Counted from the stretch's first letter, positions 1 through 7,241 are shown. The stretch: DNA of 7,241 bases from Fastidiosibacter lacustris (GCF_003428155.1 NZ_QLIR01000032.1:1-7241), one strand, 5' to 3'. Program-made: numbers and translations. The notes: generated from the sequence alone by a model not told the origin.

Positions 1-335
1 GATACTTGAGTATCGTCAAGTATGTATCTAATCCTTTCATCAGGATAACTGGGGTCAATCGGCACATAGGCAGCCCCTGATTTTAAAATTCCCAAGATGC
101 CTATAATTATTTCTAAGCTTTTATCTAAGCATAAAGCAATCAAGGTATCTGGTTTGATCTCAGCAAGTGATCGCAAGTATTTTGCCAGTTGATTGGCTTT
201 GGCATTGAGTTCAGCATACTTTAATTGTTGATCTTCAAATACCACGGCAACGTTATTTGGTGCCTTTTCAACTTGTTCTTCAAATAATTGATAAATGGTT
301 TTATCTTTTGGATAGGGTTTATCGGTTTTGTTCCA
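1..335 (-). other. NRPS adenylation domain 2, N-terminal ~111 residues only (truncated by the window)
   Basis: Sequence WNKTDKPYPKDKTIYQLFEEQVEKAPNNVAVVFEDQQLKYAELNAKANQLAKYLRSLAEIKPDTLIALCLDKSLEIIIGILGILKSGAAYVPIDPSYPDERIRYILDDTQV. It contains the A1 and A2 motifs and is paralogous to 3202..3536. Confidence 0.9.
1..335. repeat. Direct repeat copy A (intragenic, A-domain 5' end of NRPS module 2)
   Basis: Aligns without gaps to 3202..3536, offset 3201. Positions 165..335 versus 3366..3536 differ at a single base: 304 t versus 3505 c, which changes D to G. Positions 20..164 carry about 23 mismatches by hand count, and 1..19 carry 6 mismatches. Confidence 0.95.
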
Positions 336-3300
336 TTGATGTATTATTTTATGGAGTTCTGCTTCTGGTATTTTTGCTAACGTTTTATTGTTATCAATAT
401 TCCCACATTGGTTAATGTAGTATAAAAAATATCGTTTTAATTTTGTTATTGTTTGTCGATCTATAAAATAATTGTGTCCTAATAATTCGACTGTAAATTC
501 ATTTCCTTGCCTGAAAATGTTTAAAACAAAAGGAATATTCGTTTTTTCGAACCTTTTATATTCTTCTATTTTTCTATTTTGATATTGCTCTTCTATAGAA
601 TGAAAATGGACATAATTGAAGGCAAATTGGTATAAATCATCCTCTTGTAATAAATCAGATTTAATTTTTCCGTAAGGATATATTTTATATAAATTGATTA
701 ATTCTTGATTTCTCCTTGTCTCATCAATTAGAGCTTGTATAGACTGATTTATAATATTTTGTTTAATCGGGATTGTATTAAGGTGAAGACCAAATAATTT
801 ATCTCCCCCTGTCTTTTCCAACCGATTATTGACAACTAATCCTACAATAACTTCTTGGTTAGCAGTGAAAGTAGAAACTAAAATTTGATACAGAGCTAAA
901 AAAACCAGATTAATTGGTATGTTGAATTTTTGAGCTATATTAAAAATAATTTTGTTCTGTGTGTCATTTAGTTTGAAAAACTGTGTATTTAAGTTATTTG
1001 TAAACATTAAAGAGTTATTTAACTTTAAATTAACAGTTAGGAATTGACTGTCATCGAAATATTTTTGCCAGAATTTCACGTTACTTTTGTCCGTGATTGC
1101 ATTTTGCTCATTTGAAACAAATTCACCATAGTAAGGTAGTTCATCTAACTCAATTTTTTTGTTATCAATATACGCAGTTGTGAATTCTGAAATTAAAGAT
1201 GTAATACTCCAGCCATCTGAAATAGCATGATGAAAAGAAAATATTAATTTAAACGAATTTGGCAAGATACTAGTAATAATTACCCTGAATAAACCAACTT
1301 CATTGATTTTGAAAGCATTGTACCTTTCTTCAACAAAATATTTATCAAATGCATCATGCAAATAAATATTCACTTTGTCTTTAACCTTAGCACCATGTTT
1401 ATGTTGGATTGCGACATACCCATAGGTTTTGTCTTTTACAAAACTAGTTCTTAATAGAGAGTGCTTTCGAATTAAGTCTTCAAATACGTTGATTATCTTA
1501 ACACAATCAAGGTTATCATTTATTTGATATGAGAACACATCGTGATAGGTACCATCATTATTTGATCGCTCTTGTTCAAAAAACATGCCTTTCTGTAAAT
1601 ATGAAACCGGGTATATATCTTCAATATCTTCATACAATAAACCACTGTTCTGAAGCACTTGTTTTTGTCCTGCTTTGTCAATCAGTGAAAGTGGGTAATA
1701 TATATCGTTAGAAGGTATATTATATAGTTTTGCTTTTTTCACAATCTTATTAATAGTTCTATAAATAAAAATATCACGCACTGAAATATTAATTCCTAAA
1801 TGCTTTGCTTTCGAAACAACTCTTATACTTAAAATCGAATCTCCACCTATTCTGAAGAAGTCATCATCTATTCCGATTTGTTTAAGCTCTAATACATCTT
1901 GCCATATTTTACATAGTTGATTTTCTATTGAATTTCTTGGAGCAGTAAAAGAATGTTTATTTGTTTTAAATAATGAGACCGGAAATGCTTTTTTATCTAA
2001 CTTGCCATTAATTGTTAATGGAAATTTTTTCATGTGTATAAAAGCGTTTGGTATCATATAGTCAGGCAAGACTTTTATTAAGTGACTAATTAATTCATTT
2101 TCGTCTATTGGATTCTTGCTGACATAATAAGCGGTTAAATAAAATTTATTTCCAAGGTTGTTTTTATCTTTTTTGTTGCCTAAAACGCAGGCTTGTCTAA
2201 TGCCTTTAAAATTTAACAGGTTATTTTCAATTTCGCCAATTTCTATTCTTAGCCCATTGATTTTAATCTGTGTATCGTTTCTTCCAAGGTACTCTAAATT
2301 CCCATTACTAAGCCATCTGACTAAATCACCTGTTTTATATAATTGATCATAACCATTTATTTTATCCTCTTCATCCGCAAAAGGATTTTCAACAAATTTT
2401 TCAGCAGTAAGCTCAGGTTGATTCAAATAGCCACTAGCAACGCCATTACCTCCAATGTAAAGTTCACCAACTACCCCCATCGGAACAACTTGTTTATATT
2501 TATCTAGAACATAAAGCTTTGTGTTTTGTATAGGTTTTCCAATTGGAATTATGGTTTCTGTAGATCTTATGTCATTATATGCACTAACATCTATAGTTGC
2601 TTCAGTTGGTCCATATAAGTTATTTAAGCAAATAGATGGATAGAGAGTTTTAAAACGTCTCGATATTTGATGTGGTAATGCCTCTCCACTACAAAATACA
2701 TCTGTTACACTATTTAATAATCTTTCAGTTACACTTAATTGCTCAACATGATCTAAATAAAGTTGAAGCATACTTGGTACAAAATGCAATTTAGTGATGC
2801 CAACTTGTTTAATTAGTATATGTAGATATTGGGGGTATTTATGATTATCAGGTTTTGTAAATACCAATTGTGCGCCACATAGAAGCGGCAGTAGTAATTC
2901 CCATACTGACACATCAAAACCATATGGTGTTTTTTGTAGAATTTTATCCGAACTATTAAAATGATATTCAGATTGTTGCCACAGTAAACGGTTTACTAGA
3001 GATTTATGGGTGATTAATGTTCCTTTCGGATTTCCTGTTGTTCCGGAGGTATAAATCACATAAGCCAGATCATGAGAGGTATTTTGAGACAGTAGATTAT
3101 CGAAAGGGAAACCTTTATAACTGTTACTATCCAGTGGTATGAGTTGACTATTTGTCATCATTTTAAGCCTTGATAGGTAATGCGATTGTGTCAACAATAA
3201 AGATGCTCGCGTATCATTCAGTATGTATCTAATCCTTTCATCAGGATAACTAGGATCAATCGGTACATAAGCTGCTCCTGCTTTAAGAATGCCAACAATA

Positions 3301-4799
3301 CCAATTATCATTTCCAAGCTTTTATCTAGACATAAAGCAATCAAGGTATCTGGTTTAATTTCAGTAAGTGATCGCAAGTATTTTGCCAGTTGATTGGCTT
3401 TGGCATTGAGTTCAGCATACTTTAATTGTTGATCTTCAAATACCACGGCAACGTTATTTGGTGCCTTTTCAACTTGTTCTTCAAATAATTGATAAATGGT
3501 TTTACCTTTTGGATAGGGTTTATCGGTTTTGTTCCAATCGTATAATATACGTTTTTTTTGTTCTGGTGGTATTAATTCATAATGACATAATGGCTGATCT
3601 GAATCTGCTATTACTGTTTTGAGAAGCATTTCAAGGTATTGAATAAAATAGTCAGGAATATAGGTAGTATCATAACTTACCTCATACACCATTGAAGTTT
3701 TATCATAGGCAAAAAATAAAGTATTTAGTTTACCGCCATAAAAGAAATTCTTACTTTCTAATTCAATTCCACTCAATTCTATCTCTTGAGAGAGAAGGTA
3801 AGTTTCGACAACGGAAACATTTGGGGAAAAATCAATATCTAATGATTCTTTGATTTCTTCAAATGGAATAATTTGATAAGGTTTGTTTTGTTGATATTGC
3901 TCATATATTTTCTTTAGTAATTCCGCAAATGTCATTTCTCCAGATAATTGAATCTGCATTGGAAACATACTGACAAAATAACCAACGATTTTACTAAATT
4001 CAGTCGGACGTATGTTTTTAGGATAGGACACAACTAAGTCATTTAAATGAAAACATCTCAATACAAACGTACTGATTAAGGCATTGAAAAATATAAATGG
4101 TGTTGTCTTATGCGTTTTAAGTAGCTTACTTAAAATTTTAGGGTCAATATTAACTCGCTTACGATTGATTTGCCCTGTGTCATCATGGTTATATTTAACA
4201 AGATCATTTTGATTGCATCCTTGAAGATAGTGCTGCCAATAATCAATGGTTTCTTTTTTACTTTTGGCAATGATTTCTTCTTCATAATCTAAGTAATCAG
4301 CCAATTGATAGGTTTGAAATTGGGTAATGGCATCCAATCCCTCATTATAAAGCTTTTCAAATACTTGACTAAATATTGTCGTGGTTAGTCCATCTGAAAT
4401 AATATGATGCCAGACAAACTGAAAATAATACTGATCATGATCTGTTTTAATCAGTATGGCTCTAAATAGCCAGTCCTTTTCAAGATCAAAAGGCTTGGCT
4501 CTTAATTGTTCAAGTGCAGCAAGAATTTCATCTTGAGTAGAATGGTATAATTCCTGATAAATCACATCTCCATCAAAGCGATCAAGGATGATTTGATTTG
4601 CTTCGCCGTCCTTTTCAATAAACCGTGTTTTAAAAGCTTCAAAATAATTACCAATTGTTTGATATATTGCTGCAAACTTGTCTCTATCTAAGTTACCCCT
4701 AACTTGATATGAAATCGCAATATTATAATTATCCGCATAAGGATTAAGTTTGTAGGCATACCACAGTTCTTCCTGCTGCTTTGTTAATTTAAGAGTCAT
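1..4799 (-). CDS. Non-ribosomal peptide synthetase, N-terminal 1,599 codons (C-A(Ser)-T-C-A...). The 3' end runs off the left edge of the window.
   Basis: The minus-strand frame is uninterrupted from ATG 4799..4797 to position 3, with 2 nt of the next codon left over. I translated it by hand and met no stop. GGAG at 4806..4809 lies 6 nt upstream of the ATG. An in-frame TAA at 4902..4904 closes the frame upstream, with no better start in between. Canonical NRPS core motifs appear in order: LTKQQEELW (C1), WHHIISDG (4389..4412), LKYAELNAKANQLA (A1), YTSGTTGNPKG (3021..3053), NGKLDKKA (1986..2009), FFRIGGDSI (Ser codon 1836..1838), FHHAISDGWS (1206..1235), then a second A-domain start. The ORF is absent from the supplied track only because no stop codon falls inside the window. 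Confidence 0.95.
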   Translation of the reverse strand, partial: MTLKLTKQQEELWYAYKLNPYADNYNIAISYQVRGNLDRDKFAAIYQTIGNYFEAFKTRFIEKDGEANQIILDRFDGDVIYQELYHSTQDEILAALEQLRAKPFDLEKDWLFRAILIKTDHDQYYFQFVWHHIISDGLTTTIFSQVFEKLYNEGLDAITQFQTYQLADYLDYEEEIIAKSKKETIDYWQHYLQGCNQNDLVKYNHDDTGQINRKRVNIDPKILSKLLKTHKTTPFIFFNALISTFVLRCFHLNDLVVSYPKNIRPTEFSKIVGYFVSMFPMQIQLSGEMTFAELLKKIYEQYQQNKPYQIIPFEEIKESLDIDFSPNVSVVETYLLSQEIELSGIELESKNFFYGGKLNTLFFAYDKTSMVYEVSYDTTYIPDYFIQYLEMLLKTVIADSDQPLCHYELIPPEQKKRILYDWNKTDKPYPKGKTIYQLFEEQVEKAPNNVAVVFEDQQLKYAELNAKANQLAKYLRSLTEIKPDTLIALCLDKSLEMIIGIVGILKAGAAYVPIDPSYPDERIRYILNDTRASLLLTQSHYLSRLKMMTNSQLIPLDSNSYKGFPFDNLLSQNTSHDLAYVIYTSGTTGNPKGTLITHKSLVNRLLWQQSEYHFNSSDKILQKTPYGFDVSVWELLLPLLCGAQLVFTKPDNHKYPQYLHILIKQVGITKLHFVPSMLQLYLDHVEQLSVTERLLNSVTDVFCSGEALPHQISRRFKTLYPSICLNNLYGPTEATIDVSAYNDIRSTETIIPIGKPIQNTKLYVLDKYKQVVPMGVVGELYIGGNGVASGYLNQPELTAEKFVENPFADEEDKINGYDQLYKTGDLVRWLSNGNLEYLGRNDTQIKINGLRIEIGEIENNLLNFKGIRQACVLGNKKDKNNLGNKFYLTAYYVSKNPIDENELISHLIKVLPDYMIPNAFIHMKKFPLTINGKLDKKAFPVSLFKTNKHSFTAPRNSIENQLCKIWQDVLELKQIGIDDDFFRIGGDSILSIRVVSKAKHLGINISVRDIFIYRTINKIVKKAKLYNIPSNDIYYPLSLIDKAGQKQVLQNSGLLYEDIEDIYPVSYLQKGMFFEQERSNNDGTYHDVFSYQINDNLDCVKIINVFEDLIRKHSLLRTSFVKDKTYGYVAIQHKHGAKVKDKVNIYLHDAFDKYFVEERYNAFKINEVGLFRVIITSILPNSFKLIFSFHHAISDGWSITSLISEFTTAYIDNKKIELDELPYYGEFVSNEQNAITDKSNVKFWQKYFDDSQFLTVNLKLNNSLMFTNNLNTQFFKLNDTQNKIIFNIAQKFNIPINLVFLALYQILVSTFTANQEVIVGLVVNNRLEKTGGDKLFGLHLNTIPIKQNIINQSIQALIDETRRNQELINLYKIYPYGKIKSDLLQEDDLYQFAFNYVHFHSIEEQYQNRKIEEYKRFEKTNIPFVLNIFRQGNEFTVELLGHNYFIDRQTITKLKRYFLYYINQCGNIDNNKTLAKIPEAELHKIIHQWNKTDKPYPKDKTIYQLFEEQVEKAPNNVAVVFEDQQLKYAELNAKANQLAKYLRSLAEIKPDTLIALCLDKSLEIIIGILGILKSGAAYVPIDPSYPDERIRYILDDTQV
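336..1631 (-). other. NRPS condensation domain 2
   Basis: Starts at EDIEDIYPVSYLQKGMFFEQ. Active-site motif FHHAISDGWS is at 1206..1235. Ends at ...AELHKIIHQ immediately before WNKTD. Boundaries are approximate. Confidence 0.85.
1737..1943 (-). other. NRPS thiolation (PCP) domain 1
   Basis: Sequence APRNSIENQLCKIWQDVLELKQIGIDDDFFRIGGDSILSIRVVSKAKHLGINISVRDIF. The phosphopantetheine-attachment Ser of the GGDSI motif is encoded at 1836..1838. Boundaries are approximate. Confidence 0.85.
1986..3536 (-). other. NRPS adenylation domain 1, predicted serine-activating
   Basis: A-domain motifs present: A1 LKYAEL, A2 LKAGAAYVPIDP, A3 YTSGTTGNPKG, A4 FDVSVWE (2898..2918), A5 NLYGPTE, A7 YKTGD, A8 GRNDTQIKINGLRIEIGEIE, A10 NGKLDKKA. 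I aligned by hand to my recollection of GrsA-PheA. This gives specificity residues D235 V236 W239 H278 F299 S301 L322 I330 D331 K517, i.e. DVWHFSLIDK. That is 9/10 to each of the two classical Ser codes, DVWHFSLVDK and DVWHLSLIDK. Confidence 0.85.
3202..3536. repeat. Direct repeat copy B (A-domain 5' end of NRPS module 1)
   Basis: Partner of 1..335. See copy A. Confidence 0.95.
3570..4799 (-). other. NRPS condensation domain 1 (N-terminal, possibly a starter C domain)
   Basis: The protein starts directly with a C1-like motif, MTLKLTKQQEELWYAYKLNP. The active-site motif HHIISDG is at 4389..4409, about residue 131. The domain ends before the linker ...ELIPPEQKKRILYD-WNKTD. Boundaries are approximate. 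Confidence 0.85.
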
Positions 4800-5402: not shown

Positions 5403-5720
5403 TTAATACAACTCAATCGAAGTAACCTCTCCACACGCTATTGTTTTCCCTTCCCACAACGTAAAGCGCGTTCCAACTTTTAACCGCGGAATCACCTCGT
5501 CTGGTGAAAGAAACACTATTCTAATATTCTCCACGGTATCTCCTAGCGAGATGGGTTTACCATACTCTTGGACAAGCAAACGGCAATCGTAAGCATGCTT
5601 TGCAACTTCTGGAACATTTTCAACGTACATTGGGCATCCAAAATTCATCGCTGGTATAGCTTGTGAGCGACCACCTTCCTCAGTGTTAAGAAGCGTTATT
5701 TTCGCAAAAATACCTTTCAT
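5403..5720 (-). CDS. 105-aa EF-Tu domain III-like protein, putative cognate immunity protein of the upstream Rhs toxin
   Basis: Complete ORF, ATG 5720..5718 to TAA 5405..5403. AAGGA at 5728..5732 overlaps the TAA of the toxin gene and ends 7 nt before the ATG, an arrangement consistent with translational coupling. The GC of 5461..5520 is 27/60, similar to the toxin 3' part. The sequence pattern FAKITLLNTEEGGR ... PISLGDTVENIRIVFLSP ... VGTRFTLWEGKTIACGEV parallels E. coli EF-Tu FESEVYILSKDEGGR ... VMPGDNIKMVVTLIHP ... DGLRFAIREGGRTVGAGVV. The EF-Tu sequence is recalled from memory and the alignment is by eye. Confidence 0.8.
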   Translation of the reverse strand: MKGIFAKITLLNTEEGGRSQAIPAMNFGCPMYVENVPEVAKHAYDCRLLVQEYGKPISLGDTVENIRIVFLSPDEVIPRLKVGTRFTLWEGKTIACGEVTSIELY

Positions 5721-5727
5721 ATCTGAA

Positions 5728-5732
5728 TCCTT
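5728..5732 (-). promoter_or_regulatory. Shine-Dalgarno site of the 105-aa ORF, overlapping the toxin stop codon
   Basis: The minus strand reads CCA-TAA-GGATTCAGAT-ATG. The AAGGA uses the last two bases of the TAA stop at 5731..5733. Confidence 0.65.
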
Positions 5733-7241
5733 ATGGCACTGGCGAGTAGTTGAGTACTTGTGGAACCAAACCAGGCAGGTTCTTATTAGGAAGAACGCAT
5801 GCAGGAATACCTCGATCTACTGTCGCTGAAATTCCAGGTTGATTCAGAACGCTACGCGGTACTTGTGATTTAACGATCGTATATGGTGGATCACCAAAGG
5901 CTTTAACTGCCTGTTTAGCATAACTCGCAGCCGACTCGGCACTTGTTGTGAAATACTTCCCTTCTAATCCTGGAAGATTATTGAGTGCACCTGTTTTTCG
6001 AATATCAGCCAATTCATCAGGTTTAACAGCCCTGAACACATCTACTAGTTCATCTCCGCCATTTCGAACAGTAGTCACAAACTCGCGTGTTTTACCTGCT
6101 TTATGGCTAGCTTGAGTTGTTTTCCCCGCTGCAACGCTTGCCTTAACATTCTCCACAATCATCTTTGGTGCAACAGCTTTAGCCAGCAGCATTCCGCCTT
6201 TTACATAGGTGCCACCATATAACAATCCTAATCCTAAAGATGCCGCGGTACCCGTATAGTAAGCAGCCGCATTTGTCCGCCCGTTTTCATATCCAAAGCC
6301 TGTTAAGCCAAATGTCGTATCATCCATAAAACCATTGGCAAAATGGGTGGCTAAACGTTTAACATAACCCGATAAATCCAATCCTGTTTGTAGTTGAAGG
6401 CTTTCTAATAGATCATCATAATCTAAATAATCTAATTCATTAAAGTCTAAAATACGCTCTTCATCTATCTTGATAAATCTATCTGCTATAGCAGAATAAT
6501 CGTCAAAATAACCACGCAGTAAACCTTGCATATTGTTAATTAACAGAGCATTCTTTCGCACATATTCTTGTAAAAAATTAATATTTCTTGATAAATCATT
6601 ACTAAATGATAAGTACTTTTTTTCACAAATTGATGCGCAATCAATATACTTACACTCAACGTCAGTAAGCGGATACATAACAGGAGAAAAATATCCTGGT
6701 AGTCCAAATTCTTCAGATTGAGACAATTGTTTGAAGACCTTATAGATATCTTCATAGGTATTTCTAACATATCCTTTTTTTTCTATTTGACTAAAAACTT
6801 TTGCAACAAACGCCTCATAATTCGGATTTTTGATAGCGTGATTATTCAACTTGCTATGCCTTGTTTCAAACCACTGTTGTAAAACAAATTCAACCTTCTT
6901 ACTTTTATGCTTCAATTCATTTTCGAGTAAGTGATATTTTGTATGAATAATTTGTCTATTAATCTCAGGAAGCACCGTTGCTGTTGTTAGCCATAGTATT
7001 TCAAGTTCTAGTAATTTTGATTGCTCACTATAAGTATTTGATGCCTTAACATACCCATTAAAAAATGCTGTCCTTTGCTTTTTGAGTTCGATAATCGCCT
7101 CTTGAGGCGTAATGTCATACAGTCCAGTTGGATCAATCACATTAACTGGGTTATTGCTCGCATAGGCATAAGGGTGTACATTTCCACCTGCTAAAATATC
7201 TAAAGCATCAGGCTGTAAATATCCACCAAGCTTAGGGTGAA
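5731..7241 (-). CDS. Rhs/YD-repeat family polymorphic toxin, C-terminal end: last ~34 codons of the conserved core plus a 469-aa variable C-terminal region. The 5' end lies beyond the right edge.
   Basis: The frame of the 469-aa track ORF stays open upstream of its GTG (7140) all the way to 7241. It encodes HPKLGGYLQPDALDILAGGNVHPYAYASNNPVNVIDPTGLYD. This is the conserved Rhs/TcC core-end signature (AGG-x16-DPxGL, PxxxxDPxGL) that precedes the variable toxin domain. The stop is TAA at 5731..5733. I cannot tell a full-length rhs gene from an orphan rhs-CT fragment with only 100 nt of core in view. Confidence 0.85.
   Translation of the reverse strand, partial: HPKLGGYLQPDALDILAGGNVHPYAYASNNPVNVIDPTGLYDITPQEAIIELKKQRTAFFNGYVKASNTYSEQSKLLELEILWLTTATVLPEINRQIIHTKYHLLENELKHKSKKVEFVLQQWFETRHSKLNNHAIKNPNYEAFVAKVFSQIEKKGYVRNTYEDIYKVFKQLSQSEEFGLPGYFSPVMYPLTDVECKYIDCASICEKKYLSFSNDLSRNINFLQEYVRKNALLINNMQGLLRGYFDDYSAIADRFIKIDEERILDFNELDYLDYDDLLESLQLQTGLDLSGYVKRLATHFANGFMDDTTFGLTGFGYENGRTNAAAYYTGTAASLGLGLLYGGTYVKGGMLLAKAVAPKMIVENVKASVAAGKTTQASHKAGKTREFVTTVRNGGDELVDVFRAVKPDELADIRKTGALNNLPGLEGKYFTTSAESAASYAKQAVKAFGDPPYTIVKSQVPRSVLNQPGISATVDRGIPACVLPNKNLPGLVPQVLNYSPVP
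5734..6087 (-). other. Extreme C-terminal ~118-aa domain of the Rhs protein, presumed toxin domain of unknown family
   Basis: CT residues 352-469 read REFVTTVRNGGDELVDVFRAVKPDELADIRKTGALNNLPGLEGKYFTTSAESAASYAKQAVKAFGDPPYTIVKSQVPRSVLNQPGISATVDRGIPACVLPNKNLPGLVPQVLNYSPVP. The toxin call rests on its position at the very C-terminus next to the immunity-slot gene. I recognise no nuclease (HNH, AHH, EndoU), deaminase (HxE/CxxC), Fic (HxFxxGNGRxxR) or clear ART ExE motif. Confidence 0.5.
6166..6315 (-). other. Glycine-rich hydrophobic segment within the Rhs C-terminal region (glycine-zipper or pre-toxin-TG-like)
   Basis: CT residues 276-325 read TFGLTGFGYENGRTNAAAYYTGTAASLGLGLLYGGTYVKGGMLLAKAVAP. 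The segment has many small-xxx-small spacings and few charged residues. Confidence 0.5.
7120..7173 (-). other. Rhs core-end motif PYAYASNNPVNVIDPTGL (core/toxin demarcation and expected autoproteolysis site)
   Basis: The DPTGL codons are GAT CCA ACT GGA CTG at 7134..7120, read directly from the sequence. In characterised Rhs/TcC proteins the polypeptide is self-cleaved at this motif, releasing the C-terminal toxin. Confidence 0.8.

Follow-up and report, generated by a model that had tools for sequence, protein, structure and literature searches.

What kind of protein occupies the immunity slot behind an Rhs polymorphic toxin is the question raised by a stretch of Fastidiosibacter lacustris DNA (GCF_003428155.1, NZ_QLIR01000032.1:1-7241), the whole of which, 7,241 nucleotides, is referred to here as the window. 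On its minus strand, a 105-residue open reading frame (ORF) extends over 5403..5720, from an ATG at 5720 to a stop codon at 5405..5403, and begins 10 nt (5730..5721) after the TAA stop codon (5733..5731) of an upstream Rhs ORF. A Shine-Dalgarno-like AAGGA on the same strand (5728..5732), seen in the sequence itself 7 nt ahead of the ATG, overlaps this TAA. An initial annotation, made from the sequence alone, had given the coordinates, strand, spacing, and Shine-Dalgarno overlap correctly; it had further proposed that the ORF encodes a free-standing copy of domain III of elongation factor Tu (EF-Tu) and that this protein is the immunity partner of the toxin. We consider it quite probable that the ORF product is the cognate immunity protein of an Rhs toxin domain with an ADP-ribosyltransferase (ART)-like fold, and that it represents a stand-alone family derived from domain III. 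The homology, the predicted fold, and a near-obligate pairing with one toxin family across many phyla are established by the comparisons set out below.

Homology to EF-Tu domain III

The only Pfam family matched by the ORF is GTP_EFTU_D3 (PF03143; E 2.9e-5, 24.8 bits), with residues 4-102 covering positions 8-105 of the 106-position profile. When a profile of 123 family members was compared with PDB sequences, 65 were matched at E<=10, of which 63 were EF-Tu (best E 1.1e-5) and the other two weak matches to eRF3. The matched EF-Tu sequences, which include bacterial, mitochondrial, and reconstructed ancestral forms, were aligned over residues ~300-393, that is, over domain III; the family-profile alignment maps to EF-Tu residues 306-392, in domain III and not domain II. 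Taken individually, 19 of the 123 members match PF03143 (E<0.01), and none matches any other Pfam family. An AlphaFold2 model of the ORF product, based on 22 close homologues, is an all-beta barrel with two short helices (predicted local distance difference test score, pLDDT, 94.4). The barrel superposes on EF-Tu domain III: the top 50 Foldseek matches in the PDB are all EF-Tu, with query-normalised template modelling (TM) scores of 0.68-0.78 (0.74-0.78 for most), root-mean-square deviations (rmsd) of 1.6-2.3 Å for most, and sequence identities of 16-24%. Pfam, family profile, and predicted fold thus bear out the proposed likeness. The four blocks that had been matched to EF-Tu by eye were also recovered by hidden Markov model (HMM) alignment, with identical residues at 17 of 54 positions by our own count, the third or so that had been claimed. 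The E. coli domain III sequence in one alignment was entered by hand; the PDB alignments are independent of that sequence.

Judged from these profiles and from the predicted fold, the ORF product is a real homologue of bacterial EF-Tu domain III, far above chance, ancient, and highly diverged. The low identity points to an old divergence and not to a recent partial duplication of tuf. Beyond the barrel fold (TM 0.76-0.78), it shares with domain III (PF03143; E. coli EF-Tu ~300-393) a co-linear sequence match over the full domain, including the EGGR loop, a PGD turn, a GxRF strand, the E-G of the REGGRT hairpin, and a terminal G.G.V. The first of these, placed by HMM alignment at codons G16-G17-R18 (5667..5675, minus strand), is common to bacterial EF-Tu (E. 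coli ...DEGGRH...). The EGGR loop is typical of bacterial-type EF-Tu and is not known from eEF1A, so that the family descends from bacterial EF-Tu specifically. Codons W89-E90-G91 (5448..5456, minus strand) align with R377-E378-G379 of EF-Tu.

Several features set the ORF product apart from its presumed ancestor. Whereas translational GTPases combine a G domain with domains II and III, this 105-aa protein stands alone, with neither GTPase domain nor domain II. It carries a family-specific Cys pair (C29, C46), a DCR motif, and a family-specific Trp at the R377 position; a short helix (residues 73-79) takes the place of the EF-Tu HPIAMDDG turn, and the close subfamily has a hairpin insertion of 6-10 residues at 34-44. 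Moreover, genes of the ORF family lie in toxin loci and not among translation genes. That the resemblance reflects convergence, or that some generic small beta-barrel happened to match by chance, is exceedingly improbable: the Pfam score misses the gathering threshold (24.8 vs 27 bits) and a single-sequence phmmer search of the PDB with the ORF found no match, but the alignment is co-linear from end to end, 63 of the 65 PDB sequences reached by the family profile are EF-Tu, PF03143 and no other family is matched independently by 19 members, and all of the top 50 structures are EF-Tu (rmsd 1.6-2.1 Å for most).

A family of stand-alone domain III-like proteins

A word-indexed search recovered 22 close relatives of 99-108 aa, except for the NCBI call of the same gene (P0005), which has 75 aa, starts at Met31, and matches the last 75 residues of the ORF with 100% identity. 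Since homologues align from Met1, the true start is the ATG at 5720, and the annotated Met31 start lies too far downstream. An exhaustive profile search at E<=1e-3 yielded 640 cluster representatives, of which 215 still score at E<=1e-10; nearly all are stand-alone proteins of ~100 aa (almost all of the best 150 span 80-145 aa). A further word-indexed search with a broad family alignment gained only a few distant members, and tblastn of the ORF against plasmids gave only two weak, unannotated Variovorax matches. A few members are fused to unassigned domains, to a membrane segment, or to DUF6966, and one to an Rhs fragment. Neither Pfam nor NCBIfam has a family dedicated to the ORF. A homologue from Thauera sinica bears the automatic UniRef name 'EFTu/EF1A C-terminal domain-containing protein', which indicates that the domain is seen by pipelines but not interpreted.

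In toxin-paired members of the family, G16-G17-R18, C29-P30, D45-C46-R47, G60, F70, L88-W89-E90, and G97 are each conserved at a level of at least 90%. Among the 48 toxin-paired homologues, G16 and G17 never vary and R18 is kept by 44, while W89, E90, and G91 occur in 46, 48, and 41, respectively. The GGR and WEG motifs thus conserved align with the EGGR and REG(G) loops of EF-Tu; there, the two loops are neighbours on the tip of domain III turned towards domain I and the T-stem of the tRNA. The two cysteines, both absent from EF-Tu, are similarly constant (C29, codon 5636..5634, in 46/48; C46, codon 5585..5583, in 48/48). They lie on opposite strands of the beta2-beta3 hairpin, to which the close subfamily adds a conserved His42, and could form a disulfide or a metal site.

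The initial annotation had also singled out Thr93 (codon 5442..5444, minus strand) as the counterpart of EF-Tu Thr382, the residue phosphorylated by the Doc toxin. The alignment of the two residues holds. A functional meaning was rejected, as the residue is not conserved in the family: Thr occupies this column in only 12 of 48 toxin-paired homologues and in 42 of 123 family members, so the coincidence carries no functional weight and is best regarded as a by-product of homology.

Pairing with a single toxin domain

Through an alignment of the toxin domain encoded at the end of the Rhs ORF, 54 loci were retrieved, at one genome per species. They span Gamma-, Beta-, and Alphaproteobacteria, Myxococcota, Verrucomicrobiota, Chlamydiota, Bacteroidota, Riflebacteria, a cyanobacterium, and others. 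In 47 of these loci, the toxin is followed on its own strand, after 0-45 nt, by a domain III-like ORF (family HMM E 1e-16 to 1e-38). Of the seven exceptions, three break off at the end of their contig within 150 nt (L022, L032, L058), another three consist of degraded pieces of the toxin (L060, L064, L065), and the last, L053, has a weak, degraded domain III-like remnant. Viewed from the immunity side, homologues at 75, 60, 41, 32, and 30% identity, a set comprising Alloalcanivorax, Acidovorax, two metagenome contigs, and a Myxococcales metagenome-assembled genome (MAG), all sit after the same toxin domain.

The pairing persists when the carrier of the toxin changes. DPxGL motifs lie upstream of the toxin domain in many of the homologous loci, at various distances within Rhs proteins; other carriers are PT-HINT proteins and short ORFs with signal-peptide-like N-termini. 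Among the latter, toxin ORFs of ~140-150 aa with no Rhs carrier, around 2930-3306 in L023 (Verrucomicrobiae MAG) and L045 (Akkermansiaceae MAG), still have the domain III-like gene after them. Further domain III-like copies are found as orphans in Rhs/immunity arrays or alone (Thauera, L066, L069), and orphan copies are usual for immunity genes. In Thauera sinica (L004), a 96-aa ORF at 7353-7643, ending ...GTFELYEGNRKTATVTVL, precedes the orphan gene; its faint likeness to the C-terminal hairpin of the family is not significant (HMM E 0.36), and a faint toxin remnant is present at 7897-7986. L068 has two domain III-like ORFs in succession, the second of them truncated (890-1162). The placement in the immunity slot is supported in that homologues almost always directly follow the same toxin domain, whatever its carrier. 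The copies in the 47 paired loci and the five immunity-side homologues sit behind toxin C-termini, and orphan or stand-alone copies exist as well.

Toxins and immunity proteins also vary together. Across 48 pairs, pairwise identities of the toxins correlate with those of the immunity proteins (r 0.63; means 54% for toxins and 42% for immunity proteins). At a finer scale, mutual information across the 48 pairs brought out correlated indels only, slightly above the shuffled-pair level: indels in toxin loops 35-38 and 79-82 correlate with the hairpin insertion of the immunity protein at 34-44 (MIp 0.30-0.37, against a maximum of 0.28 for shuffled pairs). Loop 79-82 immediately precedes the VDRG strand, where ARTs bear a substrate-recognition loop.

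Because 47 of 54 toxin loci carry the domain III-like ORF within 45 nt downstream, its assignment as the cognate immunity protein of the upstream toxin is strongly supported by gene order. The F. lacustris ORF lies directly downstream of the toxin's C-terminal domain on the same strand, and its relatives covary with the toxin and not with the delivery module, recurring in orphan cassettes and immunity arrays, as immunity genes do. The initial annotation had allowed for a chaperone or adaptor instead. A secretion chaperone, adaptor, or activating cofactor for the Rhs effector would likewise be small, cytoplasmic, and co-transcribed, as the ORF product is, and some immunity-like proteins are reported to activate or stabilise effectors. 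Nevertheless, such a role is very improbable, since the small protein tracks the toxin domain and not the N-terminal delivery domain: the same pair is found behind Rhs, PT-HINT, and short signal-peptide carriers, and the ORF is retained both next to orphan C-terminal fragments and, as an orphan itself, in immunity arrays.

The toxin domain

The toxin domain corresponds to the last ~115 aa of the Rhs ORF (5731..6078 on the minus strand including the stop codon; coding 6078..5734), as delimited by homologues, an AlphaFold2 model, and Foldseek. A search recovered 43 homologues, most of them C-terminal fragments and one with PT-HINT upstream. They share the motifs [FY]RAV..E, EGKYFTTS, and VDRGIP. 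None of the homologues has a Pfam family over this domain, nor is there an NCBIfam family for it, and neither the domain itself nor a 40-member toxin profile gave a meaningful match to PDB sequences (none at E<=10 for the profile). In a set of 48 non-redundant toxins, the positions conserved at 90% or more are R16, V18, P20, E22, L23, I26, N34, E39-G40-K41-Y42-F43, S46, A50, Y53, A54, A57, F61, D63, Y66-T67, V87-D88, G90-I91, A93, V95, L101, P106, and P115.

The predicted structure (pLDDT 81) has the order beta-alpha-beta-alpha-beta-beta-beta, and all of its leading Foldseek matches, weak but coherent, are to proteins with the ART fold. They comprise the Aeropyrum and Pyrococcus RNA 2'-phosphotransferases (Tpt1/KptA), the Rhs toxin TreTu (7ZHM/7ZHL), CC0527, ParT, diphtheria toxin, the RES-type proteins MbcT and VPA0770, and poly(ADP-ribose) polymerases (PARPs). 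With respect to the catalytic triad of ARTs, R16 lies on beta1 and Y42 and S46 on or just after beta2, each conserved in at least 90% of the 48 homologues. These homologues have no conserved Glu on beta5, and D88 of the VDRG motif is the sole acidic candidate. The domain is thus likely, on the strength of the model, to be an ART-fold enzyme. By analogy, its reaction could be that of a protein ART, of an RNA ART such as TreThr, or of an enzyme that hydrolyses or phosphorolyses nicotinamide adenine dinucleotide (NAD+), as do Tne5 and the RES toxins.

Comparison with known toxin-immunity systems

The closest parallel is the TreTu-TriTu pair of Salmonella Typhimurium Rhs-main (PDB 7ZHL/7ZHM), in which TreTu ADP-ribosylates EF-Tu (PMC9825190). 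Like the toxin domain in the window, TreTu is an Rhs C-terminal toxin (~113 aa) followed by a small immunity gene; it has a minimal ART fold, which the window domain probably shares, and is among the best structural matches of that domain (E 5.7e-3, probability 1.0, TM 0.47). The two have Aeropyrum Tpt1 as a common structural neighbour, TreTu's own closest structural neighbours including this RNA 2'-phosphotransferase (PMC9825190). In both, an Arg on beta1 is followed six residues on, in helix 1, by a Glu (R16/E22 in the window toxin, R6/E12 in TreTu). The other catalytic positions differ, with GKYFTTS and VDRG in the window toxin and H31 and W68 in TreTu, and the toxin profile shows no sequence homology to TreTu in the PDB at E<=10. 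TreTu modifies Asp21 in domain I of EF-Tu, and TriTu is a flat five-stranded sheet with two helices, unlike the domain III barrel (PMC9825190). Accordingly, TriTu was rejected as a relative of the ORF on grounds of fold, and the pair described here does not belong to the TreTu/TriTu family.

The same genetic layout, with the same presumed occlusion of the NAD+ cleft by the immunity protein, is found in TreThr/RhsFI, Tne5/Tni5, Tre1/Tri1, and Tre23/Tri23. The toxins of these pairs belong to sequence families other than that of the window toxin, and none of RhsFI, Tni5, Tri1, and Tri23 has been reported as a homologue of a translation-factor domain. Precedent for EF-Tu as a cofactor or entry factor comes from CdiA-CT of NC101 and EC869, Serratia Rhs2CT, and Salmonella Rhs2. 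These toxins are nucleases, and their immunity proteins are not EF-Tu-like; CdiA-CT of NC101 binds domain 2 of EF-Tu (PMC5737660).

Proposed mode of action

How the immunity protein would work can be outlined from these parallels. As the Shine-Dalgarno element overlaps the toxin stop codon, the two genes would be translationally coupled, and the immunity protein would bind the toxin 1:1 in the cytoplasm of the producer. Most likely, the bound protein would cover the catalytic (NAD+) cleft or the loops that recognise the substrate, in line with ART toxin-immunity pairs that have been solved or modelled: a beta-lid of TriTu traps NAD+, a loop of Tni5 enters the cleft, and a helix of RhsFI plugs its entrance (PMC9825190, PMC13285283, PMC13617354). 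The toxin-binding face probably includes the conserved cluster of GGR, DCR, and LWEG together with the beta2-beta3 hairpin, and the correlated indels in the toxin loops and the immunity hairpin fit with binding over the active-site region.

Several observations weigh against an immunity protein paired with an ART-fold toxin. The Foldseek matches of the toxin model are weak (TM 0.37-0.59, E 3e-3 to 0.3), and Pfam searches with 40 toxin members gave only faint ART-PolyVal matches, in 3 of the 40 at E >= 0.19. The covariation between toxins and immunity proteins may equally reflect clade structure. In addition, P0121, a metagenomic protein of 565 aa, is an Rhs-repeat fragment ending in a domain III-like domain, with a stretch bearing a deaminase-like HNCAEQH before it and no recognisable in-frame copy of the ART-like toxin; a frameshift in the gene call may explain this, or the domain may be paired there with another toxin.

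Recruited scaffold or copy of the target

If the ORF product is the cognate immunity protein of the ART-like toxin, its ancestry still allows different accounts of the toxin's target. Under the first, the domain III-like fold was recruited simply as a scaffold, the toxin being either an RNA-directed ART or an enzyme that cleaves NAD(P)+ as a glycohydrolase or phosphorylase, and descent from EF-Tu would say nothing about the target. The RNA enzymes Tpt1/KptA are the top Foldseek matches of the toxin, and the same list holds RES/MbcT-type NAD+ phosphorylase toxins (6fkg, 8gug) and ParT. A canonical catalytic Glu on beta5 is not evident, VDRG standing in place of ExE. There is precedent for both kinds of activity, as Tne5 is an ART-fold Rhs toxin that acts purely as a NADase and TreThr is a 121-aa Rhs ART that acts on tRNA. 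On the other hand, this account offers no reason why a tuf fragment should have been recruited and its EF-Tu-specific loops long retained, and by residue count the toxin domain is near neutral in charge, which is untypical of an RNA binder. We regard it as a serious contender, though one that stops somewhat short of being probable.

The second account is sharper. The ancestry of the family suggests that the immunity protein may have evolved from the cellular target of the toxin: the toxin would bind domain III of EF-Tu, with EF-Tu serving either as the substrate of ADP-ribosylation or as a cofactor or entry factor, and the immunity protein would be a pseudosubstrate or decoy occupying the toxin's docking site. 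The ancestry is specifically that of bacterial-type EF-Tu, with the EGGR loop and the E-G of REGGRT kept and PDB matches that are essentially EF-Tu only, and the loops shared with EF-Tu are the most conserved part of the immunity family. The position of R377, a residue conserved in EF-Tu and eEF1A, is Trp in 46 of 48 toxin-paired homologues, as one would expect after the disabling of an acceptor or contact residue. Structurally, the toxin has the same neighbours as the EF-Tu-modifying TreTu (Aeropyrum Tpt1), and TreTu itself is one of them; this ART-fold neighbourhood makes a link to EF-Tu conceivable. Moreover, recruiting part of a protein with existing affinity for the toxin would be a simple evolutionary route, and several Rhs toxins and contact-dependent inhibition (CDI) toxins bind EF-Tu (PMC5737660).

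Several points count against this second account. TreTu, whose immunity protein is unrelated, docks on helix D and modifies Asp21 in domain I (PMC9825190), and the EF-Tu-dependent CdiA-CT binds domain 2 (PMC5737660). The GGR and EG motifs are possibly fold-stabilising turns and not a recognition surface, identity to EF-Tu is only 16-24%, and ART-fold toxins can be NADases or RNA-modifying enzymes with no protein target. Derivation from a target or cofactor is rather unlikely in our estimation. A more specific version is more doubtful still: the toxin would ADP-ribosylate or dock on the EGGR/REGGRT tip of domain III, which faces the tRNA and domain I, with R377 as a possible acceptor or contact residue and the immunity protein a pseudosubstrate derived from a duplicated 3' fragment of tuf.

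Organization of the locus

The window covers only the C-terminal part of the Rhs protein, whose frame is open from 7239 to the stop codon at 5733..5731 (feature 5731..7241, minus strand) and runs off the window end; the YD-repeat shell falls outside the window. The end of the Rhs core lies at 7120..7173 on the same strand, where the translation reads PYAYASNNPVNVIDPTGL and contains the DPxGL autocleavage motif. This PxxxxDPxGL core end (...NNPVNVIDPTGL), followed by a C-terminal toxin, identifies the ORF as an Rhs-core protein, and ...HPYAYASNNPVNVIDPTGL in the upstream frame is the motif that closes the core. After DPxGL come ~290 aa of mostly helical sequence, a Gly/Ala-rich hydrophobic linker (AAAYYTGTAASLGLGLLYGG...; 6154..6270, minus strand) directly N-terminal of the toxin domain, and the final ~115-aa domain. 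The ~290 aa between DPTGL and the linker (6241-7125, minus strand) match no Pfam or NCBIfam family; they could represent a translocation domain, or else a C-terminal domain that is additional or displaced. Here DPxGL and the toxin domain lie ~350 aa apart, compared with 13-195 aa in most homologous loci. A Gly/Ala-rich, glycine-zipper-like stretch precedes the toxin domain in most family members (L001, L008, L012, L015, and others), and may be a membrane-entry segment that moves with the cassette.

Base composition sets this cassette apart from its surroundings. The GC content is 0.43 in the immunity gene, 0.45 in the toxin domain, and 0.44 in the Gly-rich linker, whereas it is 0.33 in the pre-toxin region and 0.31 in the downstream intergenic DNA and the nonribosomal peptide synthetase (NRPS) gene beyond. 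Because the cassette has 43-45% GC against 31-33% around it, the linker, toxin, and immunity gene (about 5403-6270) were probably acquired horizontally, by C-terminal cassette replacement. The GC junction falls inside the Rhs C-terminal region and not at DPxGL.

The multi-module NRPS gene lies on the same strand, ~600 nt downstream of the immunity gene. Its frame (3..4799, minus strand; ATG ~4799) comprises at least 1599 codons, has the domain order C-A-T-C-A with the motifs YTSGTTGNPKG and FFRIGGDSI, and continues past the start of the window. Two stretches spaced 3201 nt apart (1-335 vs 3202-3536) form a direct repeat of 91% identity, which corresponds to the starts of two successive adenylation domains and may be the product of recent module duplication or gene conversion.

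Implications

The layout of this locus is that of an ordinary polymorphic toxin-immunity cassette. What is new is an immunity family descended from a translation-factor domain and its near-obligate pairing with an unnamed family of minimal ART-like toxins. No EF-Tu-domain-like immunity protein is described in the literature that was searched in full text, in agreement with the initial annotation, which knew of no such family; EF-Tu is absent from the available text of the 2012 catalogue of polymorphic toxin systems. For catalogues of effectors and immunity proteins, the pair adds one new family of each kind, and it is widespread, from Proteobacteria to Chlamydiota, Verrucomicrobiota, Bacteroidota, and Myxococcota.

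Immunity proteins of polymorphic toxins usually have orphan folds that are uninformative about the target, whereas here the antidote is a recognisable piece of a translation factor. A concrete hypothesis is thereby gained, namely that the target of the toxin may be domain III of EF-Tu and that immunity genes can arise from the target itself. If true, the family would show plainly that the immunity protein of a polymorphic toxin can come from the very protein that the toxin attacks; if the target hypothesis is wrong, it would still illustrate clearly how a housekeeping domain can be exapted as an inhibitor.

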